The notes: generated from the letters alone by a model not told the origin. DNA of 64,000 bases from Patescibacteria group bacterium (GCA_004297215.1 SCUM01000001.1:289181-353180); one strand, 5' to 3'; positions 4,152 to 62,036 are shown, numbered from the stretch's first letter. Made by a program: numbers and translations.

Positions 4152-6800
4152 TTAACCCTTTCGGGCTCCCTGCGACAAGAACCGGCCTTTCACCGCCTCG
4201 ATCACGACCACGCGCACGGCGCCAAGGGAGAGGACGAGGCCGAGGTCTGCGCCCGTGAGCGGCACATGGCCGAACGCGGCCATGACCGTCGGGACGAACA
4301 GGGTGATGGCGATGAGCAGCATCCCGCACGCCACCCCGGCCACGAGCCACGGATTGGAAAGCGGATGGATGCGCCACAACGGCACGCGCATGTTCTTGAG
4401 CGAGAACGCATGGACCACCGAGATGAACCCGACCGCGGCGAACAGGACGGTCTGCAGGTGGTCGAGCGGATATCCCGCGCGAAGCAGCAGGACGAACGAG
4501 AGGAAGACGGCGATGTCCGTGACGAGGCCGGTGAGGACGATGAGGCGGATCATCCGCCGGTCGAGCACCGGTTCGTCCCGTCGGCGGGGCGGATCCCGCA
4601 TGATTCCCGGTTCGCCCGGCTCCATCGTGAGCGCGGCGCTCGGCAGCCCGTCCGCGACCAGGTTGATCCAGAGGATCTGCAGCGCCGTGAGCGGGAGCGG
4701 AAGGCCGGCAATGATCGATCCGCCGATGAGCAGGATCTCGGTGAAGCAGCTGGACAGCAGGTACACGCTCACGCGGCGGATGTTCTCGAACAGGACGCGC
4801 CCCTGCTCGACCGCGGCCGTCACGGTCCCCAGGTCGTTGTCGAGCAGGATGATGTCGGCGGCTTCCTTCGCCACCTCCGTGCCGGACCCGAGCGCGACCC
4901 CCACGTCCGCGGCCTTGAGCGCCGGGGCGTCGTTCACCCCGTCGCCGACCATGGCGACCGACGCGCCGCGCGCGCGCCAGGCCTCGACCAGTCGGATCTT
5001 GTGGCGCGGCTCCACGCGCGCATACACGTCGATGCCGGTCACCCGTCGCGCGAGCTCGCGGTCGTCCCAACGGTCGAGCTCCTCTCCGGTCACGACGCGA
5101 TGCGTGCGGTCAAGGCCCGCCTCAAGCGCCACCAGCCGCGCGGTGTCGGGGTGATCGCCGGTCACGAGGACCGTGCGCACGCCGGCCGCGCGCGCCCGCG
5201 CGACCTGCTCCTGCGCCTGCGGCCTCAACGGGTCGCGCAGGCCGAGGAACCCGAGGAATGCCATCCCGCGAAGGTCGTCCGCCTCAAGCGTCTTCGCCCG
5301 CGCGCCGGCCTCCCGGGTGGCGCATCCGATCACGCGTACCCCGCCTTTCAGCAGCCGCGCGAGGACGCGGGACACCCGGCGCCGCTCTCCGTCGGTGAAC
5401 GGATGGACGTCGCCGTCCTCTCCCAGGTACGACGCGCATCGCGCAAGCACGAATTCGGGGGCGCCCTTGTACAGGATGCGCGCCTCCTTGCCCGCCCACC
5501 GATGGAGGGTCGCCATGTCCTTGCGACGGGAATCGAACGGGATCTCGGCAAGCCGCGGGTGCCGGAGGCGCAAGGCGGCCGCGTCGATGCCGGCGGAGAG
5601 CCCCGCGCCCATGAGCGCGCGCTCGGTGGGCGACCCGTTCGTCGCCTGCTCGATCCCCTTCACGCGTTCCACCACCGCGTCGTTCACCAGCATCCCCGCT
5701 TCCAGGAGCGCGACGATGCCGCGGGATACCGAGAGGTGGCTCACGTCCGCGGCGGACGGGGCCCCTTCGGCCGGGACGACCTCCGCCACGCGCATCTCCC
5801 CTTCCGTGAGCGTCCCGGTCTTGTCCGTGCAGATCACCGACACGCTCCCGAGCGTCTCGGCCGCCACCAGCCGGCGCACGAGGGATCCCCGTTTGAGGAT
5901 CCGCCGCATGCCGACCGCAAGCACCATGGTGACGGACACCATGAGCCCTTCCGGCACGGCCGACACCGCAAGCGCGATGCCCGTCTTGAGCATCTCGACC
6001 GTGCCGCGGCCGGACGCGATCCCGAGGACGAACAGCGCGAGGACGGTCGCGACCGCGAACAACCCGATCCGGGCGCTCAACTGGCGCAGCTGCGCCTGCA
6101 AGGACGTTTCCGGTTCCTCGGTCCCGACCACGAGCGAGGCGATCTTCCCGAGTTCGGTGAGGGAGCCGGTCGCGACCACCACCGCTTCCGCCCGGCCGGC
6201 CACCACGATCGTGCCGGCAAACGCCATGTTGACGCGCTCGGCGAGGATCGTCCCGATGCGGAGCGCCTCCGGACCTTTTGCGACCGGCATGGATTCCCCG
6301 GTGAGCGGCGCTTCGTTCGTCTCGCACGCCACGGCCTCGATGAGGCGCGCGTCCGCGGCCACCCGGTCTCCCGCGCGCAGCACGAGCCGGTCGCCAAGGA
6401 CCAGCTCGGAAGCGCGGATCTCCCGTTCGCGCCCGTCACGGCGCACCATGGACATCGGCACGACGAGCGACCGGATCGCCTCAAGCGTGCGGGCCGCGCG
6501 GTATTCCTGGAAGAACCCGAGCGCCGCGTTCAGCGCGAACGCGCAGGCGATCACCGCCGCCTCGGCCTTGTCCCCGAGCGCGAGGCTCACGACCGCGGCC
6601 GCGAGCAACAGCAGCATGAGCGGCGCCGAGACCTGCCGGGCGAGCACCCCGGCCCATCCGTCATGACGGACGGTCGGAAGGGCGTTTGGTCCGTGGAGAC
6701 GGAGGCGGCGCGCCGCCTCCGAGCCCGCCAAGCCGCCCGGAGGGGATCCGAGCGCTTTCAAGACGGCCGCAGCGGATTGCGCATGCCAGGGGCGTTCCAT
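4152..6800 (-). CDS. P-type cation-transporting ATPase (P2-type, Ca2+/Mg2+-ATPase-like)
   Basis: ICTDKTGTLT phosphorylation motif, TGDHPDTA and GDGVNDAPALKAADVGVA hinge motifs, N-terminal cation-ATPase domain, 10-TM architecture; 882 aa. Confidence 0.9.
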   Translation of the reverse strand: MERPWHAQSAAAVLKALGSPPGGLAGSEAARRLRLHGPNALPTVRHDGWAGVLARQVSAPLMLLLLAAAVVSLALGDKAEAAVIACAFALNAALGFFQEYRAARTLEAIRSLVVPMSMVRRDGREREIRASELVLGDRLVLRAGDRVAADARLIEAVACETNEAPLTGESMPVAKGPEALRIGTILAERVNMAFAGTIVVAGRAEAVVVATGSLTELGKIASLVVGTEEPETSLQAQLRQLSARIGLFAVATVLALFVLGIASGRGTVEMLKTGIALAVSAVPEGLMVSVTMVLAVGMRRILKRGSLVRRLVAAETLGSVSVICTDKTGTLTEGEMRVAEVVPAEGAPSAADVSHLSVSRGIVALLEAGMLVNDAVVERVKGIEQATNGSPTERALMGAGLSAGIDAAALRLRHPRLAEIPFDSRRKDMATLHRWAGKEARILYKGAPEFVLARCASYLGEDGDVHPFTDGERRRVSRVLARLLKGGVRVIGCATREAGARAKTLEADDLRGMAFLGFLGLRDPLRPQAQEQVARARAAGVRTVLVTGDHPDTARLVALEAGLDRTHRVVTGEELDRWDDRELARRVTGIDVYARVEPRHKIRLVEAWRARGASVAMVGDGVNDAPALKAADVGVALGSGTEVAKEAADIILLDNDLGTVTAAVEQGRVLFENIRRVSVYLLSSCFTEILLIGGSIIAGLPLPLTALQILWINLVADGLPSAALTMEPGEPGIMRDPPRRRDEPVLDRRMIRLIVLTGLVTDIAVFLSFVLLLRAGYPLDHLQTVLFAAVGFISVVHAFSLKNMRVPLWRIHPLSNPWLVAGVACGMLLIAITLFVPTVMAAFGHVPLTGADLGLVLSLGAVRVVVIEAVKGRFLSQGARKG

Positions 6801-6827: not shown

Positions 6828-7490
6828 TCAACGCCCGAGCGCCAGTCGCGGGACGTACCCGGCCCACGCGAACGAGGTGAGGAACGAGGTCATCTGACGG
6901 GTCAGGATCGGGAGGCTGAGGAGCGTGTCCTTGGGGAGGACTTCCGTGAGCGATACGGCCGCGCCCGGGACGAACAGCGCGAGCTGGGATCCGGTCACCG
7001 GGACGATCAGCTCCTCCCAATGCGTCCCGTATGCCGTCGTCGCGACGCGCTCGCTCGTGAGCAGGCGCGCGACCGGATACAGCGGACGCTCGGGATTCGC
7101 GACCAGCGCGTACACGGCGGCCTGTCCCGGAACCTGCACGAGCGCGCTCCCGGCCTTGGGCAGCATGGGGTCGCCCGCGGGAAGCGATTCGACGGTGGCG
7201 TCGCTTACCAATCGCACGTGGCGGAAGTCCGGCTCGTAGGTGAAGAACTGCACGTCGCTCACGAACGCGCGGGCCTTGAAATCGTCCGCGACATAGACGA
7301 CGCCCGCGTGCCCCGGGCTGCGCAGGTACTCGCCCAGGCAGACGATATCCACGGCTTCCTCGGCGCCCGAGACGGCGCGCACGCGCGTGCCGGGCGCGAC
7401 CGGCGCGTCGCACGACGGCGCGGCAGCGGAGGCAGCAAGCGGGAGGAACAAGGCGGCGACGAACGAGACGAGCGTGAGGCGCATGCGCAT
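6828..7490 (-). CDS. Secreted hypothetical protein (signal peptide)
   Basis: N-terminal MRMRLTLVSFVAALFLPLAASAAAP signal peptide; 220 aa. It is first in the operon with the P-type ATPase. Confidence 0.45.
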   Translation of the reverse strand: MRMRLTLVSFVAALFLPLAASAAAPSCDAPVAPGTRVRAVSGAEEAVDIVCLGEYLRSPGHAGVVYVADDFKARAFVSDVQFFTYEPDFRHVRLVSDATVESLPAGDPMLPKAGSALVQVPGQAAVYALVANPERPLYPVARLLTSERVATTAYGTHWEELIVPVTGSQLALFVPGAAVSLTEVLPKDTLLSLPILTRQMTSFLTSFAWAGYVPRLALGR

Positions 7491-19861: not shown

Positions 19862-19979
19862 CCTTCCGCCGCAGCCCCATCAGGAACGAGCCCCTTCGGC
19901 GCGGATGCGCCAGGGCGACCCCGACGAACGGTCGGGGTCATTTTTTACTAAACCCAGCCAAATTATTGCAAACCATCCC

Positions 19980-20008
19980 TTGACAAAACCTCAAAAATAT
20001 GGTATAAA
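19980..20008 (+). promoter_or_regulatory. Strong sigma70-type promoter TTGACA-N17-TATAAA (locus A), near-identical to the promoter at 57801
   Basis: -35 at 19980-19985 and -10 at 20003-20008. The 36-nt block is about 85% identical to 57801-57829. Confidence 0.65.
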
Positions 20009-20039
20009 TATCCACGTGAAGTGATCGTTCCTTCCAAGC

Positions 20040-20239
20040 GGAGTTCGAAGACCGCTACAACCTTAAGGGGGAGAGTCTAAAGAATGCCCGTGGCTGTTGT
20101 TGTCGTGAGTCCCCCTCACACACGACGGCAGCCACGGGCCTTTTTCGTAAAAGGCTCTAACGCGAACCCGCCGACGTCGTCGGCGGTGAAAACAACGTCA
20201 GAAAAACAGGCCGGGTCCCTTGACCCGGCATTGAGGTGA
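20040..20239 (+). promoter_or_regulatory. Conserved 5' leader (locus A): GGAGTTCGAAG motif, SD, ATG micro-ORF (MPVAVVVVSPPH..., 51 codons, 20084-20239), intrinsic terminator (hairpin GCCCGTGGCTG...CAGCCACGGGC plus CTTTTT, 20086-20145)
   Basis: Read directly from the sequence. The architecture parallels the leader at 57860-58102. Confidence 0.5.
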
Positions 20240-20242
20240 TTC

Positions 20243-21547
20243 TTGAAGAACCTGATCCTGATCGCGTCCATGCTTGCCTTCGCTGCCTGCGAGGGACGAA
20301 CGATTGAGACCCCGGCGACGACCGTCAACGCCACCTGCCCGGCCCTGCCGGAGCAGAACGACGACGCGCTCCTCGCCTGTCTCGAGACCATTAGCGAGAT
20401 GACGACCGCTGCGCAGGACGAGGAAAGCCTCGTCGCCTGCCTCGGGGACCTCGAGGCGGCGCTTGACCTCTGCGAAGAGGCTCCCGCGCCCGTCACGGTC
20501 GACGTGATCACGTGCCAGGCCAACAGCGCGGTCGTCGCGAGCGCAACCGATTGCCCTCGCGTCAACCTCGTCTGCGCGCCAGGCACCACGCCGTTTTCGA
20601 GTCCCGACACCGGCGAGTTCCGCTGCGATGAGCAGCATCTCACCATCGACATCGGGAACGGGACGCCGCAAGGCGACCTGGTGCTCCCTGGGACCGGCGT
20701 GGCCGACGTGGCGCACTTCCGCGTGACCAACCTCGGAACGGCGCCGGCTCCGCTCACGGGCGTCAAGCTCGAGAACGTAGCCCAGCAGCCGCTCGAGTCC
20801 GTCTACGTCGTCGACGTCATCCGTAACGGCGTCGGGACCTACGGGGTCTGCACCGGACGGATCGACCTGAATGACGGGAACGGCTGCCTGCGACCGCTCA
20901 CCGCGGTGACGGTCGGCACCAATGAGTCGGTCGACGTGGTGGTGCGGGTGGAGACGCCTGCAGCCGGCACGTGGCCCAACAACGACCGGTACGTGCAGAT
21001 GCGTCTCGTATCCGGCGAGCGTTCGGCCTACGGCAACTGGTTCCTGCTTGCAAACAGCAGGCTCACCGTGAGCAAGGCCAGCGGTTCCCCCTCGGGCGGC
21101 GCCGTTCCCGGGCTCATCGAAGTCGCGCAGATGAACTGGGCAGCGAACGCCCGCGGTGATATCTTCGGCCAACGCATGACGTTCGAGGTGGAAGCGACGG
21201 ACAACGCCGGCAGCGGCTGGATCGACGGCCTGATGAACCCTGCCAAGTGGCAGGTGTTCGACCGCGACGACTCTTCGGAGATGCTCGATACAAACGCCGG
21301 CTGGTCCTTCCAGAGCACGGTCGACGGGCTGGTCATCGCGTCGCTGGACTTCTACCAGAACGGCTCATTGGTCGTCGAACAAGGCAATACGAGGATGTTC
21401 GTCGTAAAAACGGATACGACGGGCGCCGGCGCGAACGACACGTTCAGGCTGACGCTCGTGGACGTCCAGTGGACCGACGGACATGTTTGGTCCGACGGCT
21501 TCTACGTGAACAACCTGCCGGTCGAGTTCGGACGGATCGACTTCTGA
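20243..21547 (+). CDS. Secreted lipoprotein, paralog 1 of a Cys-rich lipoprotein family (434 aa)
   Basis: TTG start with a GAGGTGA SD. Lipobox LAFAAC followed by EGR. Shares the N-terminal pattern and a C-terminal W-x-DG motif with the ORFs at 22232 and 60250. Confidence 0.65.
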   Translation: MKNLILIASMLAFAACEGRTIETPATTVNATCPALPEQNDDALLACLETISEMTTAAQDEESLVACLGDLEAALDLCEEAPAPVTVDVITCQANSAVVASATDCPRVNLVCAPGTTPFSSPDTGEFRCDEQHLTIDIGNGTPQGDLVLPGTGVADVAHFRVTNLGTAPAPLTGVKLENVAQQPLESVYVVDVIRNGVGTYGVCTGRIDLNDGNGCLRPLTAVTVGTNESVDVVVRVETPAAGTWPNNDRYVQMRLVSGERSAYGNWFLLANSRLTVSKASGSPSGGAVPGLIEVAQMNWAANARGDIFGQRMTFEVEATDNAGSGWIDGLMNPAKWQVFDRDDSSEMLDTNAGWSFQSTVDGLVIASLDFYQNGSLVVEQGNTRMFVVKTDTTGAGANDTFRLTLVDVQWTDGHVWSDGFYVNNLPVEFGRIDF

Positions 21548-21713
21548 CAACCCTGCGTCCGGGGCGGTGGAATCGAGAGGGTCTCCTCTCTTCCCCGCCT
21601 CGGCGCGAACACGTTCTGAAGATTCTGCGATTGCGGTCATGCGACCTCAGCCGCGGACCTTTCAGGATAGATAACCAGTGCCGGACTTCGAGCCGGCCAG
21701 TATGGAGGACGCC

Positions 21714-22067
21714 ATGACGTGGAAGAAGTTCGAAGGGAACGTGGTCGGGACCAGGGTCGAAGGCGATCCGTCGGTGCCGCCCACCAGGTGGTACAACCAC
21801 CTGTGGCTGCTGATGTTCGGATGGAAGAAGGTCGCCGTGTTCATGGCGATGAACGCTTCCGCCCCCGCCCGCGTGGGCTTCCGTCCCTTCAGGGGCGACG
21901 CGATGCTCCGCGAGGAACCGCTCGATCGTGGGACCTTCCGGGTCCGGATCGGCCACGAGGCGTGCACCTTCTTCGTCGTCGGCGACGATGGCAAGGAGAT
22001 CCCGCTGGAGCTCCTGAAGGTAACGACCCGGGACGATCCGGGCTACGACAAAGTCCCGCTCCTCTGA
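21714..22067 (+). CDS. Hypothetical protein (117 aa)
   Basis: GGAGGA-N4-ATG start and strong GC3 bias. The ORF also opens at GTG 21678. Confidence 0.4.
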   Translation: MTWKKFEGNVVGTRVEGDPSVPPTRWYNHLWLLMFGWKKVAVFMAMNASAPARVGFRPFRGDAMLREEPLDRGTFRVRIGHEACTFFVVGDDGKEIPLELLKVTTRDDPGYDKVPLL

Positions 22068-22231
22068 GGGGCGAGACGCTACGACGAGGGCGGAGGCAGG
22101 GTTCACTCCTTGCTTCCGCCTCTCCCCCAAGCGGATGAGCGCCACGCGCGTTCGTCCGCCTAGGCCGAGAAACAACCAGAATCCCCTCTGGCAATCCCGC
22201 CGGAGGTGACAATTGAACATAGGAGATACGA

Positions 22232-23251
22232 GTGAAGAACATCATCGCCCTGTTCGCGATCATCCTGGTCGGTTCGGCATGCGAAGGTCGCGTCGAAGTC
22301 GAGAAGATCGTTACGGAAGAGGTCGTCGTCTGGATCTGCACATGCAGCGACGGCACCGACACCGACTGCGATGCCCCGACCTGCGAAGGCGAGGTGATTC
22401 GCGAGACGGTCTGCGAAGCCGACGGTGAGTTGGTCGACGACCAGAGCGAGTGCCCGGAGCCACCGACTCTCGAGTGCGCGCAGGACTCCGATTGCGGAGG
22501 CGTCGGGACCGGATGCAGCGAAACCAACTTCGTGACCACGAACGCCTTGTGCACGGCAGAAGGATTCTGCGACCGGTTCGTGACCGACGTCGATCCCGAG
22601 AGCGAAGCCTGCGGGTTCGTCGGCGAAGGTGAAGGAGAGGGGGAAGGCGAAGGCGAAATGGTCGCGGCACCGATTCTGGTGAGTGATGACTGGTCGACAA
22701 GATCAGGAGACGACACTGCCCTATTCAGGTTTCGTCTGACACCGCCGTCAGACCATGCGATTAGCCTGTACCGAATCGCGTTCCGTATCGATAATCCGTT
22801 TCCAACGGAGACGTTCTGGAACGGGTGCGACCAACTCGCAAACCGATCCCGCTGGAGCACGCATATCGGGCCTGTCCCAGTGGATGGGACCGGTTGGGTA
22901 GTAGGCCAAGATCCCGTTGGGTACTGGGAGTTCTACTATTCGGGCGGCGGCGACCTTGGGATCTGCACGGGGAATGCGCCGCTCCGGTACGCCGTACTGA
23001 CCCTTCCGCACGACTTCGGCATCCCTGGGCGCGACATCCCTCCTGGGATGGACTACGAGGAAACGGTCTACGTGGACCTGACGGGAATCGTCGGCGGCGA
23101 ATGGGTTCAGTTGGGTCTCCCGTCCGACAGTGAGCTTGCTTCGCTTGGGATTGCCACCATCGAGTGGTATGACCGAGAGACGGGAGCGTTGCACCGATCT
23201 GACGAAGAGGCCGAGGGTCTTCCGCTCATCGGGACAGTCACGACCTTCTGA
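22232..23251 (+). CDS. Secreted lipoprotein, paralog 2 (339 aa) with a Cys-rich region and a GEGEGEGEGEGE linker
   Basis: GTG start with a GGAGA SD. Lipobox LVGSAC followed by EGR. Eleven Cys residues lie in the first 130 aa. Confidence 0.65.
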   Translation: MKNIIALFAIILVGSACEGRVEVEKIVTEEVVVWICTCSDGTDTDCDAPTCEGEVIRETVCEADGELVDDQSECPEPPTLECAQDSDCGGVGTGCSETNFVTTNALCTAEGFCDRFVTDVDPESEACGFVGEGEGEGEGEGEMVAAPILVSDDWSTRSGDDTALFRFRLTPPSDHAISLYRIAFRIDNPFPTETFWNGCDQLANRSRWSTHIGPVPVDGTGWVVGQDPVGYWEFYYSGGGDLGICTGNAPLRYAVLTLPHDFGIPGRDIPPGMDYEETVYVDLTGIVGGEWVQLGLPSDSELASLGIATIEWYDRETGALHRSDEEAEGLPLIGTVTTF

Positions 23252-23273
23252 CTCGCACGCGATCACGCCTACG

Positions 23274-23310
23274 ACGCGCCCCATCCCACGGGGCGCGTTT
23301 TCTTTTTTTG
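23274..23310 (+). terminator. Rho-independent terminator
   Basis: ACGCGCCCC-ATCCCAC-GGGGCGCGT followed by TTTCTTTTTTT. Confidence 0.65.
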
Positions 23311-23382
23311 CGGATGGCGTAAGATGGATGTGGATAAGCCGTAATCCCCCACGCTATGGCTACGCGCCGCAAGTAAGCGCTG

Positions 23383-23415
23383 GACGCCCTCGCTACGCCG
23401 AGGGCGTCTTTTTTT
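23383..23415 (+). terminator. Second rho-independent terminator in tandem
   Basis: GACGCCCTCG-CTACGC-CGAGGGCGTC followed by TTTTTTT. Confidence 0.65.
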
Positions 23416-23429
23416 GGTATGATGGCGGC

Positions 23430-25622
23430 ATGAAGCTGTGGAGGATCCGCAAGGAGGAACGTCGGCCGGCCCTGCGGCTGTGGGCCGGGTTGTTCTTGTC
23501 GGCCTGCGCCAACCTGCTCGCCTGGAGCGTGCTCACCGCGGTCTTCCTCAAGACCTACGGGATCGGCTCGTTTCCGCTCGTGTTCCTGTTGAGCTCGGCC
23601 GCGTCCATGGTCGGCTCCGCGCTCTACGCCCGGCTTGCCGCGCGCGCAAGCGCGGGAGCGTCGGCGCGGATCTTCTCGCTTGCCGCGGCCGTGCTGCTCG
23701 CGCTTGCGGCCGCGCGCGCGGGCGAAGGCGGCTTAGCGTTCTTCGCGCTCCTCTTGTTGGGCAACTCGGCGTTCGTGTCGTTCGTGGGGTCGCAGCTCAT
23801 GGTGGTGGCCAACGACCGGTTCACCCCCTCCCAGGGCAAGCGCCTGTTCCCGCTCGTGAACACGGCGCACGTGGTGAGCGGGGTGACGGCCGGATTGTTC
23901 CTTGACCGGTTCGTCGGGACGCTTGGCATCGGCGGGATGCTCATGGCCGCCGCCGCGCTCGCGCTGCTCGCGCTCCCCTGCGCCGCGCGCACGCGCGCGG
24001 ACAAGCGCGAGGCGTCGCAACAGGGAGAGGTCGGGCTTTTCGCATACGTGCGCGGCAACCGCTACGTGCTAGTGCTCGCCGGGATCGTGGCGATCTCCTG
24101 GGTACTCACCCGCGCGTTCGACGTGGCGTTCGCGAGCGTGGCCGATGCGCGCTTCCCCACGGCCGAGGCGTACGTGCGCTTCAGCGGCCTCTACCTGGTG
24201 GTGACGAGCCTCTCCGCGGTGCTGTTCGACGCCCTGCTGCTCAACCGTTTGCTCGAGCGCATCGGGCTCACCCGCGGGATGGCGTTCGTGAGCAACGCGG
24301 TCACCGCGGGCGTGGCAGCGATGCTGATCGTCCCGACCTTCTGGCCCGTGATCGCGGCCAACGCCGTGAGGAGCGTGCTCATCGACCTGCAGGCCACGTC
24401 AATGCAGGTGATGCAGGGGGTGCTTCCCTCCGCGAGGCGCGCCGGGGTGAACGCCTTCCTCGAAGGGTATCTTGCCACGGCCGCGGGGGCGCTGGGCGCG
24501 CTCGCCATGCTCGCCTTCGACGCCCTCGTGCCAAGCGCGTTCGCGCCGTCGGACTCGATGCGCATCCTCGCCGCGCTCATGCTCCTCCTGCTCGCCGTGC
24601 GCGCCTGGTTGAACGCCCGGCTGCGCGCGCGGTTCTTTGAGACGCTGCACGCGCAGGTGAGGCAGGGCGACGACGACGCCCGGCTGCGGGCGCTCGAGAC
24701 CCTCGTCGAGCACAAGTTCTACCGCCAGGAAGGGATCGGACTGGTAATCGACGTGGCCAAGGACCCGCGCGCGAGCGTCGCGCTGAAAGAGACCGCGCTT
24801 TCGACCTTGGGCGCGGTCGCGGACCCATCGACCCTGCGCGTCCTCTACAACCTCCTCTCCGGCCGGGAGCGCGCGGTGCGCCTGGGAGCGGCCCGGGCGA
24901 TCGCCGCGTTCCCCGCGATACGGGATTCCTTCTTCGACGACGCCTTCTCCCGCCACCACGCGGTAGAGAAGCTCCGCGCGCTGTTCGCAGGCGAGCCGGA
25001 CCCGGAGGTGCGCGCCGTCGCGCTTGACGCGCTCGTAAAGCTCGAGGATCCCGACATCGTCCCCTTCCTCGCGAAGCTCCTGCGTGATGGCGATGCGCAG
25101 GCCAAGGCCGACTGCCTGTATTCCCTGCTGCGGTTCAACGACCCGGGCGTGATCGACGACGTGCGGCCGCTCTTGCGCGAGGGCGACCCGGCGCTGCGGG
25201 CGCTCGCCGTGCGCGTCATCTGGCCGTTTCCCTGGGAACGCAAGGCGCTCAAGGACGCGATCGCGGGCCTGTTCCCCGTCCTCAAGGAGGAAACGTTCCG
25301 ACGGCTCCCGGCGGCGCGCAAGGAGGCGTTCCGCCTCGGGACGAAATTGGCGGGCGACATCCGGCTCCAGGCGGAAACGAAACGGCTTCGCGCCCTCCTT
25401 GGCTGGACCGACCGCGCCATCCGGCTTGAAGCCGCCCTTTCCCTCTCGAAACTCGGGGAAAAGGACGGTCCGGAGGCGGTCCGGACCCTCCTTTCCGACA
25501 AGAAACGTCCGGAGCTCGACCGCGTGGATCACTCGCTGAAATGGGGCCGATATGAACCGGATGTGCGGCTGCGCCTCGTAGATACCCTCGAAGAAATGGC
25601 GGAAACCCCTCGGAAGGGTTGA
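23430..25622 (+). CDS. Polytopic MFS/TLC-like transporter fused to C-terminal HEAT/PBS-lyase repeats (730 aa)
   Basis: About 12 hydrophobic segments in the first ~430 aa. The C-terminus has repeated DPEVRAVALDALVKL / DPALRALAVRV HEAT-like units. Confidence 0.55.
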   Translation: MKLWRIRKEERRPALRLWAGLFLSACANLLAWSVLTAVFLKTYGIGSFPLVFLLSSAASMVGSALYARLAARASAGASARIFSLAAAVLLALAAARAGEGGLAFFALLLLGNSAFVSFVGSQLMVVANDRFTPSQGKRLFPLVNTAHVVSGVTAGLFLDRFVGTLGIGGMLMAAAALALLALPCAARTRADKREASQQGEVGLFAYVRGNRYVLVLAGIVAISWVLTRAFDVAFASVADARFPTAEAYVRFSGLYLVVTSLSAVLFDALLLNRLLERIGLTRGMAFVSNAVTAGVAAMLIVPTFWPVIAANAVRSVLIDLQATSMQVMQGVLPSARRAGVNAFLEGYLATAAGALGALAMLAFDALVPSAFAPSDSMRILAALMLLLLAVRAWLNARLRARFFETLHAQVRQGDDDARLRALETLVEHKFYRQEGIGLVIDVAKDPRASVALKETALSTLGAVADPSTLRVLYNLLSGRERAVRLGAARAIAAFPAIRDSFFDDAFSRHHAVEKLRALFAGEPDPEVRAVALDALVKLEDPDIVPFLAKLLRDGDAQAKADCLYSLLRFNDPGVIDDVRPLLREGDPALRALAVRVIWPFPWERKALKDAIAGLFPVLKEETFRRLPAARKEAFRLGTKLAGDIRLQAETKRLRALLGWTDRAIRLEAALSLSKLGEKDGPEAVRTLLSDKKRPELDRVDHSLKWGRYEPDVRLRLVDTLEEMAETPRKG

Positions 25623-26674: not shown

Positions 26675-27913
26675 TCAACCCTCGTGGGACGCGTCGCGGA
26701 TGGGCGCGTCGGAACGCCGGAGCAGCATCCCCCACCCGAAGAGCGTCACCACGGCCGCGGCAATGAGCGGGGCGCGCGGGTCGAACCCGCTCAACACGCC
26801 CGCCACGGCCGGGGGAAGCGCCATGGCGAGCGCCTGCACCGACTGGCTGATCCCCATGATCTCCCCTTGCGACCGTGCCCCGACGAGCGCGGAAACCATC
26901 GCGGTGAGATTGGGAACGATGAGCCCCTCCGATACGGAAATGACCGGCAAGATGAGGAACAGCCAACCGAACGTAGGCGGGATGATCAGGCCCGCGAGCG
27001 CCACGGCAAGCAGGGGGCTGCAGGCGCGCAGCACCGCGGACGGGCTCGCGCGCGCGGAGACGAGCCGGGCGAGCGCTCCTTGGGTGAAGGCGATCCACAG
27101 CCCGACGTAGGCGAACACCTGGCCGATCTGCAGCGGAGTCGCCTGGAACCGGTCGATGAGGAACACCTGGAAGAAATTCGTGAAGCAGGTGAACCCGAAG
27201 GTGAGCAGGAACACCACCACGAACATCGACCGCAGTGATGGCTGGGTAAACGCCTTTCGCACGTTGCGCACGCCCGTGAGGAGGCTCGCCGGGTTGTGCA
27301 CGCGCTCGCGCAGCGTCTCTCGGAAAAACGCCAGCACGGCCATCAGGTTCACGAGGCCCAGGAGCCCGGCAAACCAGAACGGCGTGGCAATGGTAAACCA
27401 GGAAACGAGCGACGGATCCGCGAGCGAGCCGCCGAAAAACGGCCCGAGCACGAACCCGACGGCGAACGCCATCCCCACCAGGCCGAAGTTGTGCACCTTG
27501 GTGCGCGCGTCGCTCACGTCCGCAATCGCGGAGTACGCGATGGCGATGTTGCCGCCCGCGAGCCCGGCCACCACGCGGCTTACGGCCAGCAGCCAGAACT
27601 GCCCGCTCCCGACCCCGAAGGCGAACATCGCGTATCCCAACGTGTTCACGGCGATGGAAATGAGGAGCGGCCATTTTCGCCCGAACCGGTCGGACAGCGC
27701 CCCGAGGATGGGAGCCCCGAAGAACTGCGCGAGCGGATACAGCCCCATCACGACGCCCAAAAGCAGCGTGCGCGTGGCGTACGGCACCTCGGGGGAAAAC
27801 AGCGGCGAGGCAGGGTCCACGAACAGCGGCCCGAGCACGGGAATGACGATGCCGAACCCGAGCATGTCGAGGAACACGGTAAGGACGACGGGGAACAGTG
27901 ACGGATGCTTCAT
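26675..27913 (-). CDS. MFS transporter
   Basis: 12-TM organisation with the MFS signature G.LSDRFGRK-like motif (GALSDRFGRKWPL); 412 aa. Confidence 0.85.
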   Translation of the reverse strand: MKHPSLFPVVLTVFLDMLGFGIVIPVLGPLFVDPASPLFSPEVPYATRTLLLGVVMGLYPLAQFFGAPILGALSDRFGRKWPLLISIAVNTLGYAMFAFGVGSGQFWLLAVSRVVAGLAGGNIAIAYSAIADVSDARTKVHNFGLVGMAFAVGFVLGPFFGGSLADPSLVSWFTIATPFWFAGLLGLVNLMAVLAFFRETLRERVHNPASLLTGVRNVRKAFTQPSLRSMFVVVFLLTFGFTCFTNFFQVFLIDRFQATPLQIGQVFAYVGLWIAFTQGALARLVSARASPSAVLRACSPLLAVALAGLIIPPTFGWLFLILPVISVSEGLIVPNLTAMVSALVGARSQGEIMGISQSVQALAMALPPAVAGVLSGFDPRAPLIAAAVVTLFGWGMLLRRSDAPIRDASHEG

Positions 27914-27941
27914 AGGCGTGTACGGTGAAGTATATCATTTC

Positions 27942-29339
27942 ATGCCTATGAAACGACTCGCCGCCGCCGCCTTCGTCCTGTCCGCGTTCCTCCCCGCCCT
28001 GCCGGCCGCAGCCGGCGAGTGCTGGTCCGAGCCCTATCACGAGGCGTCCGGCTCGGCCACGATCCGCTCGGCCGTGTTCATGCACGACGGCCCATGCCAG
28101 GAAAACACCTCGGTGCTCGCCACGGCCCCCACGGGCGCCAGCGTGAACGTGCTCGCGGAGGACCACGAGTGGTACCTCATCCGGCTGGACAACGGGGCAA
28201 CCGGCTGGGTGTGGCACACCTTCCTCAACCTCGGGGCGATTTCCCTGTCCGACTCCGACCGCGCCACCGTGGAATCCAAGTTCCCGCCCACCGGCGCCAC
28301 CGTCTCGGCCCCCGCCCCAACCACCTCAACAACCTCAACCACCTCAACCACCTCGTCCTCCTCCCTGCTCTCCCGCGTCACCGGCCACATCCTCCTGCAG
28401 GTGGAACAGCACGGCGAGGCCTGGTACGTGGACCCGCTCACGAGCGCCCGCTACTACATGAAGGACGGCCCCACGGCATATGAGATGATGCGCACCTTCG
28501 GGCTGGGAGTCACCGAAGGCGACTACGCGAAGATCGCCACCGGAAATGCCGATCTCAAGTCGCGTCTCAAGGGACGCATCGTGCTGCGCGTGCAACTCCA
28601 CGGCGAGGCGTATTACCTCCATCCCGATGGGTCGGTCTATTACCTGAAGGACGGCCCGGCCGCCTACGAGGTGATGCGCGCGCACTCGCTCGGGATCACC
28701 GACGCGGATCTCGCAAAGATCGCGTCGAAGACGCTCATCCTGAAACCCGTTTCCGCCTCAACCTCGACTTCAACCCCCTCAAGCTCCTCTAGCTCCTCAA
28801 GCTCCTTCTCCACGATCCGCATCTCCGACTCCCAGGAAGGGACGATCCCGTCGAACATCGACGTCATCGATCTCAACCGATACTGGATTTCGAAGATCAA
28901 CGCGCTGCGCGCGGAACGCGGGTTGAGACAGCTCGCGCTCGACCAGCGGTTCGTGGACACCGCAAGCGAATGGGCCGGCTACATGGGCGTGAACGACGAT
29001 CTCACGCACGAGCGCCCGGACGGCAAGACCATGCACCAGTGGATCGACGCCAAGGGCCTCGACTTCACGGAGCGTTATTCGCTCCCCGACGGGTGGACCA
29101 GCAACTACTTCACCGAGAACATCTCCTGGGATTTCACGGACGACTCGATGGACGGGGCGCGACAGGCGCTCGACAACACCCTCGCCTTCTATCTCGGAGA
29201 AGCGGCGAGCAACGGCCCGCACTACCGCACCGTCTACCACCCCGATTGGAACGCGGTGGGCGTCGGATTCCATTTCGCGCCCACGGACGACGGGTACAAG
29301 ATGGTGATGGCGTTCCACTACGGGAGCCTGGAACGCTAG
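27942..29339 (+). CDS. Secreted protein with an SH3b-like domain, two ~50-aa repeats and a C-terminal CAP/SCP/PR1-like domain
   Basis: Signal peptide MPMKRLAAAAFVLSAFLPALPAAAG. GWVWHTFL is SH3b-like. Duplicated motif G(H/R)I(L/V)LQV(E/Q)(Q/L)HGEAWY...YY(M/L)KDGPxAYE(M/V)MR. CAP-like C-terminus (GHYTQVVW-type region around HYRTVYHPDWNAVGVG). Confidence 0.6.
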   Translation: MPMKRLAAAAFVLSAFLPALPAAAGECWSEPYHEASGSATIRSAVFMHDGPCQENTSVLATAPTGASVNVLAEDHEWYLIRLDNGATGWVWHTFLNLGAISLSDSDRATVESKFPPTGATVSAPAPTTSTTSTTSTTSSSSLLSRVTGHILLQVEQHGEAWYVDPLTSARYYMKDGPTAYEMMRTFGLGVTEGDYAKIATGNADLKSRLKGRIVLRVQLHGEAYYLHPDGSVYYLKDGPAAYEVMRAHSLGITDADLAKIASKTLILKPVSASTSTSTPSSSSSSSSSFSTIRISDSQEGTIPSNIDVIDLNRYWISKINALRAERGLRQLALDQRFVDTASEWAGYMGVNDDLTHERPDGKTMHQWIDAKGLDFTERYSLPDGWTSNYFTENISWDFTDDSMDGARQALDNTLAFYLGEAASNGPHYRTVYHPDWNAVGVGFHFAPTDDGYKMVMAFHYGSLER

Positions 29340-44179: not shown

Positions 44180-47100
44180 CTATTGGCCCGAAGCGGCAGG
44201 GGCAGATCGGACGAACGCGTTCAGGGCCGCCCTCGTAAGCGGTCCGACCAGGCCGATGGGCGGGATGTTCTTCAATGCCTGAAACGCGGCGACGGCGCGC
44301 TGGGTGATCGGTCCATAGGTGCCGGAGGCGGACACGTCTTCTGGGAAATGCTTGAGGCACCGAAGGATCTCCTGCAGTCGTACGACCGCGTCACCGACGT
44401 TCCCAGGGCCGAGGTTCGAGGTGAACGGCGAGGACAGGACGCAGGCGGAGGCCACCGGCTCGGGGGCCCTAGCCTCGACGCACATGGCCGGATCGTCCTT
44501 CGCGTTGATCGTGCGGATGCTCCCCGCGGCCTCGTGGGTGTCGTTCCAGACCACCCGATCGAGCTTCGGCTCCCCGCGCAAGGACACCTGGAGCGCCAGG
44601 CGGTGGTGCCAGGCGGCGTCCAGTTCGAGCAGTTCGAACGTGACGGCGGAACAGTCGCGTGTATCGACTAGGACGCGGACGTCGTTGTAGTCGAAATCCC
44701 GTCCGGAATCCTCGAACCCGACGATGGTCCTGCCGTCGGCGGCGGGCGTCACGCGGACGTACGGCGTCCCCATATGCCGTTCGGTCCCGTCCGGGTTCAC
44801 GATGTACAGGTCGTACCCGACCTCGTCGCACGCGACCTCGCACGGCGCTGGCAGAGCGTCCGCAGCGGGGACGGACGGAGGAGGCTCGACGTCGGTCGTG
44901 GGCGGAAGCGGCGGGAGGACGCCGGCAGGATCGACGTAGGGTTCTTCCACGTCCTCGACGATCGGAAGGATCGCCCCGACGACGTACGCGCCGTCCTCGT
45001 TGGCGTCGATGAGCGCGTACTGGCCGATGCCAAGATGCGAATCCGGCCAGATGAGCAGGTCACTCACGAGCGCTCCCGCGTTGGACAAGGCGATGCGCAC
45101 GTTGTGGAGCCACCCGGCGTCCACCGCGAGCACGGTCACCACGATCCTGGTCCAGTCCGAGTAGTCCACCCGGATCACGACGTCGTCGAAGTCGAAGTCC
45201 GATCCCTTGTCCTCGAACCGGATGATGTCCACGGTGTCGCTCACGCGCTCGACGCGCGCGTACCGCGGGTCGGTCATGTGGCGCTCGGTCCCGTCGGGAT
45301 TCACGATGTAGATGTCGTAGGACGCGGCGGAGAAGTCGACGTCCGGCGGGGCGGGTTGCGACGGCACGGGTTCGGTCACGGGGCTCGGCGGCGGAAGTTC
45401 GCTCGTCGTCTCCGGCGCGGACGGTTCCGGGGAGGTCGTCGTCCCGGTGTCGGATCCGGGATTGCTCGGAGGGTTCACGACGATGCTCCCTCCCCCGCTG
45501 CGCCGGGTGATTGAGAAGGAGATGTCCGTGGCGTCCGCAGCGGCATACGTCCCGTCGGCGTCGATGTCCGCATCGATGGTGCAGGTGCCAGCCGCGACGA
45601 ACGTGACGATGCCGGTGGTCGAGCCGATGGTGCACACTCCGGTCGTGGTGCTCGTGTACGTCTTGGTACCGGCTCCAGCGGAAGCGGTGGACGTGATGGT
45701 CGGCTCCGCTTCGGTGATCAGGTAACTCGACTCGTACGAGCCCGCGTCGATGGTGAGCGTGCGGGCGGCGAGGGTCACGCTGAAGGAGATGTCCGTGGCG
45801 TCGGCCGTGTCATAGGTGCCGTCGGCGTCGATGTCCGCATCGATGGTGCAGGTGCCGGCGGACACGAACGTGACGATCCCCGTGGTGGAACCGATGGTGC
45901 ACACGCCGGTCGTGGTGCTCGTGTACGTCTTGGTACCGGCTCCAGCGGAAGCGGTGGACGTGATGGTCGGAGGCGTGTCCGTGAGCTCGTAGCTGGCGAC
46001 GTACGAGCCCGCGTCGATGGTGAGCGTGCGGGCGGCGAGGGTCACGCTGAAGGAGATGTCCGTGGCGTCGGCCGCGTCGTAGGTGCCGTCGGCGTCGATG
46101 TCGGCGTCGATGGTGCAGGTGCCGGCCGCGACGAAGGTGACGATACCTGTGGTGGAACCGATGGTGCAGACGCCGGTCGTGGTGCTCGTGTAGCTCTTCG
46201 TCCCCGTTCCGGCGGAGGCGGTCGACGTGATGGTGGGCGGGGTGTCCGTGAGCGAATAGCTGGAGACGTACGAGCCTGCGTCGATCGTGAGCGTGCGGGC
46301 GGCCAAGGTGACCGAGAACGAAATGTCCGTCGCGTCGGCCGTGTCATAGGTGCCGTCGGCGTCGATGTCGGCGTCGATGGTGCAGGTGCCGGCCGCGACG
46401 AAGGTGACGATGCCGGTCGTTGATCCGATTGTACAGACGCCTGTGGTCGTGCTCGTGTACGTCTTCGTTCCCGTCCCGGCGGAGGCGGTCGACGTGATGG
46501 TCGGGGGCGTGTCCGTCATGGAGTAACTGGCCACGTACGAGCCCGCGTCGATGGTGAGAGTGCGGGCGGCCAGCGTCACCGAGAACGAGATGTCCGTCGC
46601 GTCGGCCGTGTCATAGGTGCCGTCGCTCGCGATGTCGGCATCGATCGTGCAGGTGCCGGCCGCGACGAAGGTGACGATGCCGGTGGTCGAGCCGATGGTG
46701 CACACGCCAGTCGTGGTACTCGTGTACGTCTTGGTGCCGGCTCCAGCGGAAGCGGTGGACGTAATCGTCGGCGGCGTGTCCGTGAGCGTGTAGCTCGCGA
46801 CGTACGAGCCGGCGTCGATGGTGAGGGTACGGGACGCCAGGCTCGTGGTGAAGTTCAGGATGGATCCTTCGAACGCGGTCGTGCAAGAGACGTTCGGATA
46901 CGTGCCGGTGAGCGCGCTCGTGCACGCGCGGATCTTGAAATAATAGGTGATCCCGGAGGTGAGGCCGGTCACGGCATAGCTGAACGGCTGGGTGGACGAC
47001 CCGCCGGCCGTGAGCGCGGCCGTGCCGGTGCCGTCGTCGACGGTGACGGTCGTCGTCCCGGAAGAAAGATCCGAGACGGTGCCGTACACGAACTGGATGC

Positions 47101-48970: not shown

Positions 48971-49068
48971 CCCGATCGCCTTGCCCGCCGAAAACGAGCC
49001 GATTTGACATCGCATATATTGACCCTATCCTACCATGTTCCAATGGAACAGGAGGCGTCCCGTCTCGC

Positions 49069-57714: not shown

Positions 57715-57800
57715 AATGGCGCAAGTATATCATAGGCAAGGTTCCTTGACTCGGTTTCTTTAAACGCAGCTTAGATTAGCCAATATTTTGACGTTTCCCC

Positions 57801-57829
57801 TTGACAAAACCCCTAAAATATGATATAAA
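57801..57829 (+). promoter_or_regulatory. Strong sigma70-type promoter TTGACA-N17-TATAAA (locus B), near-identical to the promoter at 19980
   Basis: -35 at 57801-57806 and -10 at 57824-57829. Confidence 0.65.
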
Positions 57830-57859
57830 TCTTCTCGTACTCTGATCCTTGGATAACTG

Positions 57860-58102
57860 GCGGAAACGCCATTGGGGAGTTCGAAGGCCCTAAATATCCA
57901 TGAATTCAGAGGAGTGAGTATCTCAATGACAGGCGAACAGCCGGTTGTTGGCGTACTTCACGTACTCCCGCAACCGGTTGTTTGTTTTCTTGCCCACCGA
58001 AGCTCATCAGAGCGAAGGAGGGTTGTACCCGGAAATCTGGAGGAGAGAGTCCCCCGCCGAAGCCCGCAAGGGCGACAGTGGGTCGGATGCCTAATGCCAT
58101 GA
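57860..58102 (+). promoter_or_regulatory. Conserved 5' leader (locus B): GGAGTTCGAAG motif, SD AGAGGAG, ATG micro-ORF (MTGEQPVVGVLHVLPQPVV..., 57926-58102), intrinsic terminator (GCCGGTTG...CAACCGGTTG plus TTTGTTTTCTT, about 57940-57991)
   Basis: Read directly from the sequence. Homologous to the locus A leader at 20040-20239. Confidence 0.5.
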
Positions 58103-58230
58103 CTCGGTCTTGTACTGACTCATGTCATACCCCTGGCATCCATGGGCCACACCAGTCGCAAGGCAGGTCACTGGCCCCCGACCCTCCAGATTCCCGGGTG
58201 CAACTTCAACCAGCACCCGTAGGAGGCAGC

Positions 58231-60249: not shown

Positions 60250-61980
60250 ATGAGCAAAAGCATCCTGTTCCTATTCGCGTTCCTGACACTCACCGGCTGC
60301 GACGGAAGGACGGTGGTCGAGAATACTCAGAAGGTCCGCGAGTGCTACTGCGGCGAGAACGAGATCGTGTGCGACGTCGACCCATGTGACCGAGAGATCG
60401 TCGAGGTCATCCGCACCGCCTGCCTTGATGGCAGCGTCGTCGACGACCCGCGCGATTGTCCTGCGGCCGGTGAAGGCGAAGGAGAGGGAGAAGGCGACAC
60501 TGGACTTTTCGTCACGCTCTCAAGTTCGACGCCCGCAAGTCAGACGGTCCCGCCCGGCGCCGCCTCGGTGGAGTTCATCAAGGTGCGGCTCGCGGAAACG
60601 GATGCGCTGCTCCCCATCAACGATCTCACCTTCCGCGTCGGCGGCGTGGGTGCCGTCTCCAATATCGATTCGGCCACCTTGTACTTGGCAGATTCCTTCG
60701 ATGATCCGGTTATCGACTTGCGCGTCTCCGATCCGCAGCCGATCGATCCGGTGACGCGCGAGGTGTCGTTTCGAGGAGGTTTCGGTCTCGATCCCGGCGA
60801 GACACGGACGTATGCCGTGCGCTTGGATATCGCCGCCGCCGTGAACAGCGGAGACACGGCGCGACTTGAGCTGGTGTCCATCGCATCCGACGGCCAGGAC
60901 GTGTTTGGCGCGTTCCCGATCAGCGGGAACGCGATGACATTCACGGACCATCCGGTCGGGACGGTCCGGTTCGGACGATTCCCGTCCTTCAGCCCGGTCG
61001 TGGGCGAAACGGACGCCGTCGTGGCGCAATTCACCATCCAGGCCATGTCGGAGGGCGCGAACTTGAAAGCGCTGACGCTCAACTGGCCACAAGCGCTCGA
61101 CAACGGTAACAGTTCGATTTGGAACGATGACGTGAGATTGGGTGATTGCTTCGCCTTCTCCAGGTCGCTGGTCTTTTGCGACCTGGATGACCAGCTCCAC
61201 CTCGATCAGGATGAGATGCGGAGCTTCCAGCTCCGAACCGATCTGTTCGTCGAGGCCGGAGAGGTGATGCAGGTTGCCGTCGAAGACCCGACGGACGTGT
61301 TCGCCTTCGGAGACGAATTCGGCTTCCAGATGGCCGTGGACATCTCGGGATACGACGACGCGGATTCGGCGTGCACGGGACCGGGCCGAGACTGTTCCTA
61401 TTCGGTCGTGAGTCCCGGATGCGCATTCCAAGTCCATGACGAGGGAGGGACGTTGTTCCAGACGCAGGCCCTGCCCTCCTTCTTTCCGACCTCCGGCGGC
61501 GAGGCGACCCGTGAGGTCGTCCCTGGACCGAACTCCGCGCTGACGTTTGAGGCATTTGCCCAGAACGCGTGCGATGGAAACGTGACCCTGTTCTGGATCA
61601 GCGATTTCTCCATCCGGGCTACGGATGAGGACGGAACCGGCTGGGTGGAGGATCTGCACGATAACGCGCCTGACATGATCCGGCTCGTAAACCTGACAAC
61701 CGGCACGCAGACGCCAGGCACCACAGTGACATTCGGCCCGACGGTACATCAAGGAACGACGACGCAGTTCGGCTTCGGCTTCGAGTTCGATCCGGCGGAG
61801 TTCATCGAGAGCGGTGTGTTCTATGCGTATGAGCTCATCGTCGACACGACGGGAGCCTCGGTTGGTTCCAACGACAGCATTGAGGTGTCGACCATGTTCC
61901 TGGCGTATTGGAGCGACGGCAACGTGTCGCTTATGACCTCGAACCTTGGGCCGCAAATCGGGACCGTCCTGATTCACTGA
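60250..61980 (+). CDS. Secreted lipoprotein, paralog 3 (576 aa) with a Cys-rich N-terminal region and a GEGEGEGEGD linker
   Basis: GAGGAGAAAG-ATG start. Lipobox LTLTGC followed by DGR. Cys pattern CYCGENEIVCDVDPCD resembles paralog 2. C-terminal YWSDGNV motif. Confidence 0.65.
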   Translation: MSKSILFLFAFLTLTGCDGRTVVENTQKVRECYCGENEIVCDVDPCDREIVEVIRTACLDGSVVDDPRDCPAAGEGEGEGEGDTGLFVTLSSSTPASQTVPPGAASVEFIKVRLAETDALLPINDLTFRVGGVGAVSNIDSATLYLADSFDDPVIDLRVSDPQPIDPVTREVSFRGGFGLDPGETRTYAVRLDIAAAVNSGDTARLELVSIASDGQDVFGAFPISGNAMTFTDHPVGTVRFGRFPSFSPVVGETDAVVAQFTIQAMSEGANLKALTLNWPQALDNGNSSIWNDDVRLGDCFAFSRSLVFCDLDDQLHLDQDEMRSFQLRTDLFVEAGEVMQVAVEDPTDVFAFGDEFGFQMAVDISGYDDADSACTGPGRDCSYSVVSPGCAFQVHDEGGTLFQTQALPSFFPTSGGEATREVVPGPNSALTFEAFAQNACDGNVTLFWISDFSIRATDEDGTGWVEDLHDNAPDMIRLVNLTTGTQTPGTTVTFGPTVHQGTTTQFGFGFEFDPAEFIESGVFYAYELIVDTTGASVGSNDSIEVSTMFLAYWSDGNVSLMTSNLGPQIGTVLIH

Positions 61981-62008: not shown

Positions 62009-62036
62009 AGCCCTGCGGAAACGTGGGGCTTTTTCT
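62009..62036 (+). terminator. Rho-independent terminator
   Basis: AGCCC-TGCGGAAACGT-GGGGCT followed by TTTTT. Confidence 0.5.

Follow-up and report, generated by a model that had tools for sequence, protein, structure and literature searches.

In a window of 64,000 nucleotides (nt) of DNA from a Patescibacteria group bacterium (GCA_004297215.1 SCUM01000001.1:289181-353180; positions are counted from the first letter of this stretch), three genes on the + strand, here called A, B and C, encode putative secreted lipoproteins, which an initial annotation had singled out as a paralogous family. Our reading of the open reading frames (ORFs) gave the same coordinates as that annotation: A runs from 20243 to 21547 (434 aa, TTG start), B from 22232 to 23251 (339 aa, GTG start) and C from 60250 to 61980 (576 aa, ATG start). 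All three are real protein-coding genes. The G+C content at third codon positions (GC3) is 0.86, 0.72 and 0.77 in A, B and C, against 0.47, 0.49 and 0.46 at second positions (GC2), a coding-like pattern that is missing from the long antisense ORFs opposite them; moreover, a purine-rich sequence resembling a ribosome-binding site (RBS) can be read directly before each start. The deposited locus tags EPO34_01615 and EPO34_01805 correspond to A and C, and the 339-aa B gene is called in an independent Logan assembly. A word-indexed homologue search returned A itself and the protein P0002 for A, only itself for C and nothing for B, not even B. Because the Logan assembly calls B, this miss is a search artefact rather than evidence against the gene, and we suspect that low-complexity Gly-Glu (GE) words swamped the candidate lists of B and C. 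The parts of the three proteins map to the window as follows.

20243-20290, + strand: signal peptide of A and lipobox MKNLILIASMLAFAA-Cys, then EGR (PROSITE-like rule)
20291-20632, + strand: Cys-rich N-terminal region of A, aa 17-130, with 8 Cys past the lipobox Cys
20633-21010, + strand: middle beta-rich domain of A, aa 131-256, with 2 Cys; similarity to the family repeat is sub-threshold (i-Evalues 0.16-0.18)
21011-21547, + strand: family C-terminal domain (CTD) of A, aa 257-434 and stop (CTD profile, 124 bits)
22232-22282, + strand: signal peptide of B and lipobox MKNIIALFAIILVGSA-Cys, then EGR (PROSITE-like rule)
22337-22612, + strand: Cys-rich module of B, aa 36-127, with 12 Cys
22622-22657, + strand: (GE)6 spacer of B, aa 131-142, GEGEGEGEGEGE
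22673-23251, + strand: diverged CTD-like beta domain of B, aa 148-339 and stop, with EWYD and GLPLIGTVTTF (13.8 bits)
60250-60300, + strand: signal peptide of C and lipobox MSKSILFLFAFLTLTG-Cys, then DGR (PROSITE-like rule and G+LPP regular expression)
60343-60459, + strand: 6-Cys module of C, aa 32-70, C-x-C-x6-C-x4-C-x11-C-x11-C
60469-60495, + strand: (GE)4-5 spacer of C, aa 74-82
60505-61419, + strand: tandem beta-sandwiches of C, D1 (aa 86-231) and D2 (aa 238-390)
61501-61980, + strand: family CTD of C, aa 418-576 and stop, with FSIRATDEDGTGW, VDTTGASVGSNDS and YWSDG (CTD profile)

The lipobox start that had been noted, MK...C-[ED]GR, is seen in all three proteins: MKNLILIASMLAFAAC-EGR in A, MKNIIALFAIILVGSAC-EGR in B and MSKSILFLFAFLTLTGC-DGR in C. 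Under a PROSITE PS51257-style rule, which asks for positive charge in the n-region, 6 or more uncharged residues in the h-region and a lipobox Cys at position 15-35, only A, B and C pass among 50 gene-like ORFs in the window, and each is predicted to be lipidated by a diacylglyceryl group on the lipobox Cys. We know of no meaning for the [ED]-G-R at positions +2 to +4, which reads A-G-R in the Candidatus (Ca.) Uhrbacteria relatives described below.

With the lipobox Cys left aside, the Cys counts are even in each protein (10 in A, 14 in B and 12 in C), which is compatible with full disulfide pairing outside the cell, and disulfides are predicted in all three. B and C have in common a six-Cys module, C-x-C-x(6,7)-C-x4-C-x(9,11)-C-x(11,12)-C, which forms the first part of the longer region of B (there C-x-C-x7-C-x4-C-x9-C-x12-C) and is also found in the Uhrbacteria B-like gene. 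The counts differ from those first given: the module, put at 8-11 Cys, has 12 in B and 6 in C, and the C-terminal parts, described as Cys-free, hold 2 Cys each in A and B and 6 in C. As had been reported for the second and third members, a (GE)n spacer follows the Cys module in both B and C. The six GE hexamers of B are imperfect and differ by synonymous changes, which argues that (GE)n is kept at the peptide level and rules out recent slippage as its origin. The Cys-rich region of A is unlike the module of B and C, and A has no GE run; its motif CP..EQ.DD.AL..CLGDL.EALDLCE also occurs in the Uhrbacteria A-like protein.

From the N terminus, C is laid out as lipobox, 6-Cys module, (GE)n, D1, D2 and CTD; A as lipobox, Cys-rich region, one beta domain and CTD; and B as lipobox, 12-Cys module, (GE)6 and diverged CTD. 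The CTD of A carries the motifs F-x-V-x-ATDNAGSGW, VKTDTTGAGANDT and QWTDG and ends in ...NLPVEFGRIDF, where relatives end in ...NLPITGGTLVF or ...DLPVTGGTIVY. A W-x-DG motif had been ascribed to all three C-terminal domains; it is present in A (WTDG) and C (WSDG), but B reads WYDR. A sortase-anchored LPXTG protein was considered and rejected, as 5-6 residues follow the LPxTG-like motif and neither a membrane segment nor a charged tail is present.

Large relatives across Patescibacteria

A HMMER search with C against 1.84 billion cluster representatives (clusters at 50% identity) returned at least 185 matches at E<=1e-3, 71 of them at E<=1e-10. Residues 82-390 of C align to residues ~240-550 of Patescibacteria proteins of 1,100-1,600 aa (best E 6e-41), and the last 180 residues of A match the extreme C terminus of the same large proteins, the CTD of A being 35% identical to P0002 (E 3e-26). 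A D1-D2 profile built from 148 sequences gave C 320 bits over its full length and no significant match in A or B. For the CTD, a profile was built from 67 large-family sequences, with A, B and C excluded, and run on 850 ORFs (80 aa or longer) taken from the window and from the retrieved loci. Within the window it matched three proteins only: A with 126.8 bits, C with 39.9 bits and, at E 2.3e-3, B with 13.8 bits; in a search of 3 targets, C scored 31.5 bits with an i-Evalue of 2.8e-11. Pairwise comparison adds weak, consistent similarities between the N termini of B and C (E 9e-7) and between the C termini of A and C (E 8e-5), which together with the CTD profile place the proposed paralogy of the three members above chance.

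The CTD profile also weakly matches internal repeats of the large proteins, which suggests that their body consists of one diverged module of ~150 aa, repeated. The named large members are 'hypothetical protein' entries from Parcubacteria and Patescibacteria metagenome-assembled genomes, and Pfam covers no part of the body of the large relatives. The initial statement that A, B and C resemble no nameable family holds, since searches of Pfam, NCBIfam, PHROGs, PADLOC and PDB sequences gave no match; a phage or defence origin was rejected with the empty PHROGs and PADLOC searches. By contrast, the description of the family as lineage-specific does not survive the at least 185 cluster representatives across Patescibacteria and the A-like and B-like genes in Ca. 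Uhrbacteria. The alignments and profiles thus identify A, B and C as divergent short members of a widespread, unnamed family of predicted Patescibacteria surface proteins.

In a census of anchors among 150 representatives, ~90 have an unnamed N-terminal module (GDLIK/VYY; pattern GDLIK...VYY...RYVFPNE..Y.SWY), 24 have SLH and 12 have PG_binding_1 domains. A lipobox was found by regular expression in 3 of the 150, and in P0006 by eye, which makes lipid anchoring a rare alternative within the large family. The gene order ECF sigma factor, DUF5667, large protein, TPR recurs at P0009, P0007 and P0029 (loci L003, L005 and L006), with genes for HTH_17, a GHL15/FG-GAP protein and a ~600-aa protein upstream on the opposite strand. 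Genes for an S8 peptidase and a glycosyltransferase lie near large-protein clusters, and an SLH-type member (locus L007) is followed downstream by TPR and then by another SLH protein. Read from the genes and their order, the interchangeable anchors and the gene clusters are the signature of wall-attached surface-array proteins. DUF5667 was not mentioned in a full-text literature search. For several lineages of Patescibacteria, a preprint predicts S-layer proteins that are 1,131-1,274 aa long (10.1101/2024.05.28.596244), and the large family may plausibly be that class. In Paceibacteria, a number of highly expressed secreted proteins have been reported, some with peptidoglycan (PG)-binding domains and others with Ig-like folds (PMC10936435).

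The window itself encodes, at 6828-7490 on the - strand, a secreted protein of 220 aa that is a stand-alone GDLIK/VYY module (E 3e-12 to P0121) and has no Pfam match. Four genes from the lipobox-type homologue P0002, on the opposite strand, lies a DsbD_2 and Cupredoxin_1 fusion (L001 1321-2421, - strand), which may be relevant to disulfide formation in the Cys-rich lipoproteins.

C was modelled with AlphaFold2. With an alignment of 45 sequences, residues 82-395 reached a predicted local distance difference test (pLDDT) score >90 and formed two beta-sandwiches (86-231 and 238-390); an alignment of 4 sequences gave a pLDDT of 31.6. The model of C has no catalytic or solute-binding fold, and PDB sequence searches found no solved structure related by sequence. 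Foldseek comparison of the predicted model with the PDB returned generic tandem Ig-like matches with template modelling (TM) scores <0.25. The fold class of D1-D2 is common to cohesins, Ig-like adhesins and the carbohydrate-binding N-terminal modules of sialidases, at ~10% identity, and the combination of a cohesin PF00963 profile match with a dockerin partner was not found.

A pattern search for the duplicated element upstream of A (described below) led to one GTDB genome, Ca. Uhrbacteria bacterium RIFCSPHIGHO2_01_FULL_63_20, whose locus (L008) is syntenic with the window region around the second copy of this element; one locus in Uhrbacteria corresponds to two loci in the window genome. After the Uhrbacteria copy of the element come an A-like lipoprotein, which begins MNKSIAFVSVLLTISC-AGR (ISC-AGR) and is 27% identical to A over the full length, and a B-like gene. 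The B-like gene encodes LAGC-AGR, a CxC module, GEGEGEGE, one beta domain and a canonical CTD; the CxC module is 50% identical to that of B over 52 aa, and the CTD is 30% identical (E 1e-13). These two genes indicate that the architecture, including (GE)n and x-G-R, is conserved between genera. A 1-nt insertion in the B-like gene (L008 ~1640-1716, - strand), which reads ATCGGTCTGC where ATCGTCTGC keeps the frame, puts the signal peptide and the CxC module in different reading frames, through either a fault in the assembly or decay to a pseudogene. Between the window and Uhrbacteria, the lipoproteins have diverged faster (27-33% identity) than the flanking genes (59-65%), a pattern common among exposed proteins.

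RNA elements and neighbouring genes

Around the three genes, the following elements, leaders and terminators were located.

19977-20150, + strand: element 1 (el1), with promoter-like block, loop hairpin and terminator (fold z = -4.3)
21714-22067, + strand: orf117, between A and B (129 aa from GTG 21678), a small conserved protein
22076-22231, + strand: conserved 5' leader of B, ~155 nt (Uhrbacteria comparison; fold z = -5.3)
23273-23409, + strand: two intrinsic-terminator-like hairpins with T-runs directly after B (terminator scan)
57798-57992, + strand: element 2 (el2), the second copy, with promoter, AGUUCGAAG-loop hairpin and terminator
62009-62030, + strand: terminator-like hairpin and T-run after C

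In el1, TTGACA-17 nt-TATAAA(T) precedes a predicted transcript of ~135 nt that contains a hairpin with the loop AGUUCGAAG; the 18-bp stem of a terminator and a U-run complete the element, which stops ~95 nt short of the first codon of A. The promoter-like blocks of the two copies (19977-20009 and 57798-57830) are 91% identical over 33 nt, and the hairpin loop is conserved while the stem sequence differs. Our promoter scan demands T at position 6 of the -10 hexamer and thus did not call either promoter. A third copy in Uhrbacteria (L008 6000-6180, - strand) would give an RNA of ~135-150 nt with a T-arm-like hairpin. The strong terminator at the end of the element raises the possibility that, instead of a leader, this is a stand-alone small RNA, and el1 and el2 look like members of a small RNA gene family.

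It had been claimed that two of the three genes sit directly behind this duplicated element, as a leader, and that the family looks to be under dedicated regulation. Only A has this position: el2 is separated from C, which lies downstream of it, by 2.26 kb, three ORFs and a terminator-like hairpin, and B has no copy. Direct reading finds a putative promoter, TTGACA-17-TACGCT, upstream of C, which the promoter scan does not call, and no leader common to A, B and C was found. The idea of dedicated regulation is therefore weakened by an element that directly precedes A only and is strongly terminated, but it gains from the recurrence of the element-lipoprotein association in Uhrbacteria and from the conserved leader of B. 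A, orf117 and B are probably one operon, since no terminator-like hairpin lies on the + strand between A and B and two follow B. For orf117, neither a signal peptide nor a family match was found; orf126, which precedes the Uhrbacteria A-like gene, is 46% identical to it.

The leader of B consists, in order, of a P1 hairpin, CUCUCCCC, a GCGGA/UCCGC stem with an inner hairpin, GGCCGAGA, a CCAGA/UCUGG hairpin and the Shine-Dalgarno (SD) sequence AGGAGA, and it holds the mini-ORF MSATRVRPP*. Over 153 nt it is 94% identical to the leader of the Uhrbacteria B-like gene (L008 1717-1875, - strand), whereas the flanking coding DNA is unalignable between the two and the adjacent proteins are ~30-50% identical. 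A diverged copy lies upstream of the Uhrbacteria A-like gene (L008 3223-3362, - strand; nhmmer, 104 bits); neither A nor C in the window is preceded by one. The three copies fit a common fold, made up of the P1 hairpin, UCUC/GAGA and the GCGGA/UCCGC stem, with two compensatory pairs, and individual leaders form much stronger predicted folds than shuffled sequences do (z = -5.3 and -3.4). The conserved CUCUCC of the window leader is predicted to pair either with the internal GAGA or with the AGGAGA ribosome-binding site.

A metagenome scan with 20-mers of the B leader yielded 39 loci, 38 of which were chance matches of 20-21 nt and one the same Uhrbacteria contig. Against Rfam 15, only tRNAs reached the gathering score in the window, and in E-value mode el1, the B leader and the el2 region all stayed below half of the family gathering score. 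One candidate role for the B leader is that of a new cis-regulatory RNA, which would govern how the surface-lipoprotein family is translated through an anti-SD switch, perhaps with el1 and el2 alongside, a reading that we consider speculative and treat as a lead, drawn from three sequences in two genomes. If true, the B leader and el1/el2 would form a dedicated RNA circuit for surface-coat variation in candidate phyla radiation (CPR) bacteria.

Downstream of el2, at ~58035-58200 (+ strand), lies a non-coding region of ~160 nt closed by AUCUGGAGG...CCUCCAGAU, just upstream of a small ORF that starts at 58232 (MTRINYGDDD...). It is conserved at L008 ~5830-5985 (- strand), within an intergenic block of ~440 nt that is 81% identical as a whole, has no Rfam match and may be another structured leader. 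Directly downstream of B, past the two terminators, 23427-25622 (+ strand) encodes a protein of ~730 aa with C-terminal HEAT repeats and an N-terminal half that is hydrophobic by eye. The protein of 727 aa at 27156-29339 (+ strand) has a CAP (cysteine-rich secretory protein) domain at its C terminus together with a bacterial SH3 domain and is probably an envelope or secreted protein. At 44180-49015 (- strand), a secreted protein of 1,611 aa has five tandem repeats of 267 bp (45514-46841, 86% matches), fn3, Big-like and DUF4114 matches and a C-terminal PG_binding_1 domain; by this domain content it is a further large surface protein with a wall anchor, and it has no relation to the family of A, B and C.

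Proposed role and comparison with known systems

The lipoprotein-type signal peptides, the even number of extra Cys, the acidic spacers, the cohesin/Ig-like beta-sandwiches and the large SLH- or PG-anchored homologues all agree with the initial designation of a surface-protein family. We propose that A, B and C are membrane-tethered surface proteins, miniature lipid-anchored paralogues of the large family with a structural or adhesive role, and put the probability of this reading at roughly 0.7. The three proteins would be exported by their lipoprotein-type signal peptides and become diacylglyceryl-modified at the lipobox Cys. Outward from the membrane, a disulfide-stabilized Cys-rich stalk would come first, followed in B and C by the flexible acidic (Gly-Glu)n spacer; the distal part would comprise one to three cohesin/Ig-like beta-sandwich modules, with the family-specific CTD last. 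In this arrangement the lipid anchor would replace the wall anchor, with C keeping D1, D2 and CTD, A one domain and the CTD, and B the CTD-like domain only. Such proteins might serve as a surface-coat component, as a membrane connector that docks through the shared CTD, or as a variable adhesin. We infer surface exposure of A, B and C, possible co-assembly with a large protein and a possible regulatory role of the upstream RNAs.

Several observations weigh against this proposal. Judged by its own score of 13.8 bits, B is a marginal member of the CTD family, and in the model of C both the Cys module and the CTD are of low confidence. The strict G+LPP pattern, [LIVMFESTAG][LVIAM][IVMSTAFG][AG]C, accepts C but not A, with F at -3, or B, where G stands at -3. 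Ten window genes were scanned for Lgt and LspA with a negative result, the window being 64 kb of an 842-kb contig; a Peptidase_A8 gene adjoins a large-family member in another genome (locus L007). With 434, 339 and 576 aa and a lipobox instead of a wall anchor, A, B and C depart from the large family in both length and anchor. Scans of the window with the CTD and D1-D2 profiles detected no large paralogue, the ECF-sigma/DUF5667/TPR neighbourhood is absent around A/B and around C, and the S-layer nature of the large family is itself a prediction. Finally, B and C, at 0.72-0.77, fall short of the GC3 of ~0.88 that is usual in the window (window G+C, 65%), so that very high expression is not indicated.

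Many CPR bacteria live as episymbionts. A, B and C might be variable adhesins for host or partner cells, with sandwiches that bind a ligand and a divergence driven by host or phage pressure. Their fold class, common to cohesins, Ig-like adhesins and sialidase carbohydrate-binding modules, would fit such a function, as would their fast divergence relative to neighbouring genes and the presence of three paralogues with differing domain numbers, and Ig-like secreted proteins have been proposed as attachment factors in Paceibacteria (PMC10936435). Neither a ligand-binding site nor a partner such as a dockerin was found, though, and the fold similarity is generic (~10% identity, Foldseek TM <0.25), so we hold this explanation as a tentative one that is rather improbable. 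We regard it as unlikely that the three are dedicated S-layer membrane connectors, in which a lipid-anchored stalk holds a lattice of large paralogues by CTD-CTD contacts. The stalk-plus-spacer layout suits that task, the CTD is common to short lipoproteins and large proteins, and the latter bear the SLH or PG-binding anchors typical of S-layer proteins; yet the large proteins thereby possess wall anchors of their own, no large paralogue lies in the window, and short and large genes are not co-localized in the four loci examined.

The weak CTD match of the truncated B, the lower GC3 of B and C and a B-like gene in Uhrbacteria whose frame shifts by 1 nt after the signal peptide could be taken to mean that one or more of the ORFs, B foremost, are decaying remnants of a large surface-protein gene. 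This is very unlikely: the three ORFs are intact and start behind RBS-like sequences, their signal peptides are complete and their Cys counts even; lipobox-x-GR, CxC module, GE spacer and CTD are conserved between genera; B has a highly conserved leader and two terminators; and the Uhrbacteria frameshift may stem from faulty assembly. Most lipoproteins of monoderm bacteria are solute-binding proteins (SBPs) or enzymes, and A, B and C could be ordinary examples whose likeness to surface-array proteins is incidental. That explanation is highly improbable, as Pfam and NCBIfam gave no match to an SBP or enzyme family, ABC transporter genes are not adjacent, and the confidently modelled part is two beta-sandwiches with no alpha/beta SBP fold. 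We favour membrane-tethered, lipid-anchored miniatures of the large family.

The envelopes of CPR bacteria, or Patescibacteria, are almost uncharacterized, and attachment to hosts is ascribed, as a hypothesis, to their surface proteins. Three 'hypothetical' lipoproteins can now be tied to a modular, Pfam-uncovered family with swappable anchors (SLH, PG-binding, unnamed and lipid), and the domain map of anchor, Cys stalk, (GE)n, D1-D2 and CTD could seed family models and guide envelope proteomics and electron cryo-tomography of CPR bacteria. A, B and C are the kind of molecule expected at such a surface; the conserved upstream RNAs are less expected.

Among known proteins, the closest are the large family members themselves (for example, KKW45233.1 from Parcubacteria GW2011_GWA2_56_7 and EKD47558.1, ACD_66C00007G0001), to which D1-D2 of C is homologous at 30-36% identity and in which the CTD is homologous to that of A and C and, weakly, B. 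Like A, B and C, they are predicted to be Sec-exported and envelope-attached, with an anchor and repeated sandwiches; unlike them, A, B and C, which have a quarter to half of their length, carry a lipobox and Cys stalk, with a (GE)n spacer added in B and C. The three resemble monoderm lipoproteins (PS51257/Lgt-LspA substrates) in their n-region Lys, hydrophobic h-region and Cys at position 16-17 after small residues, but the mature part, in contrast to that of typical examples, is neither a solute-binding protein nor an enzyme. Cohesins of cellulosomal scaffoldins and their non-cellulosomal kin (PDB 2vo8, 5nrk, 1ohz and 2xdh) resemble D1-D2 at the level of fold class. A, B and C have no sequence relation to characterized lipidated S-layer proteins; the proposed principle, in which an N-terminal lipid replaces the wall-binding domain, would be the same as in lipid-anchored S-layer proteins (reviewed in 10.1101/2024.05.28.596244).

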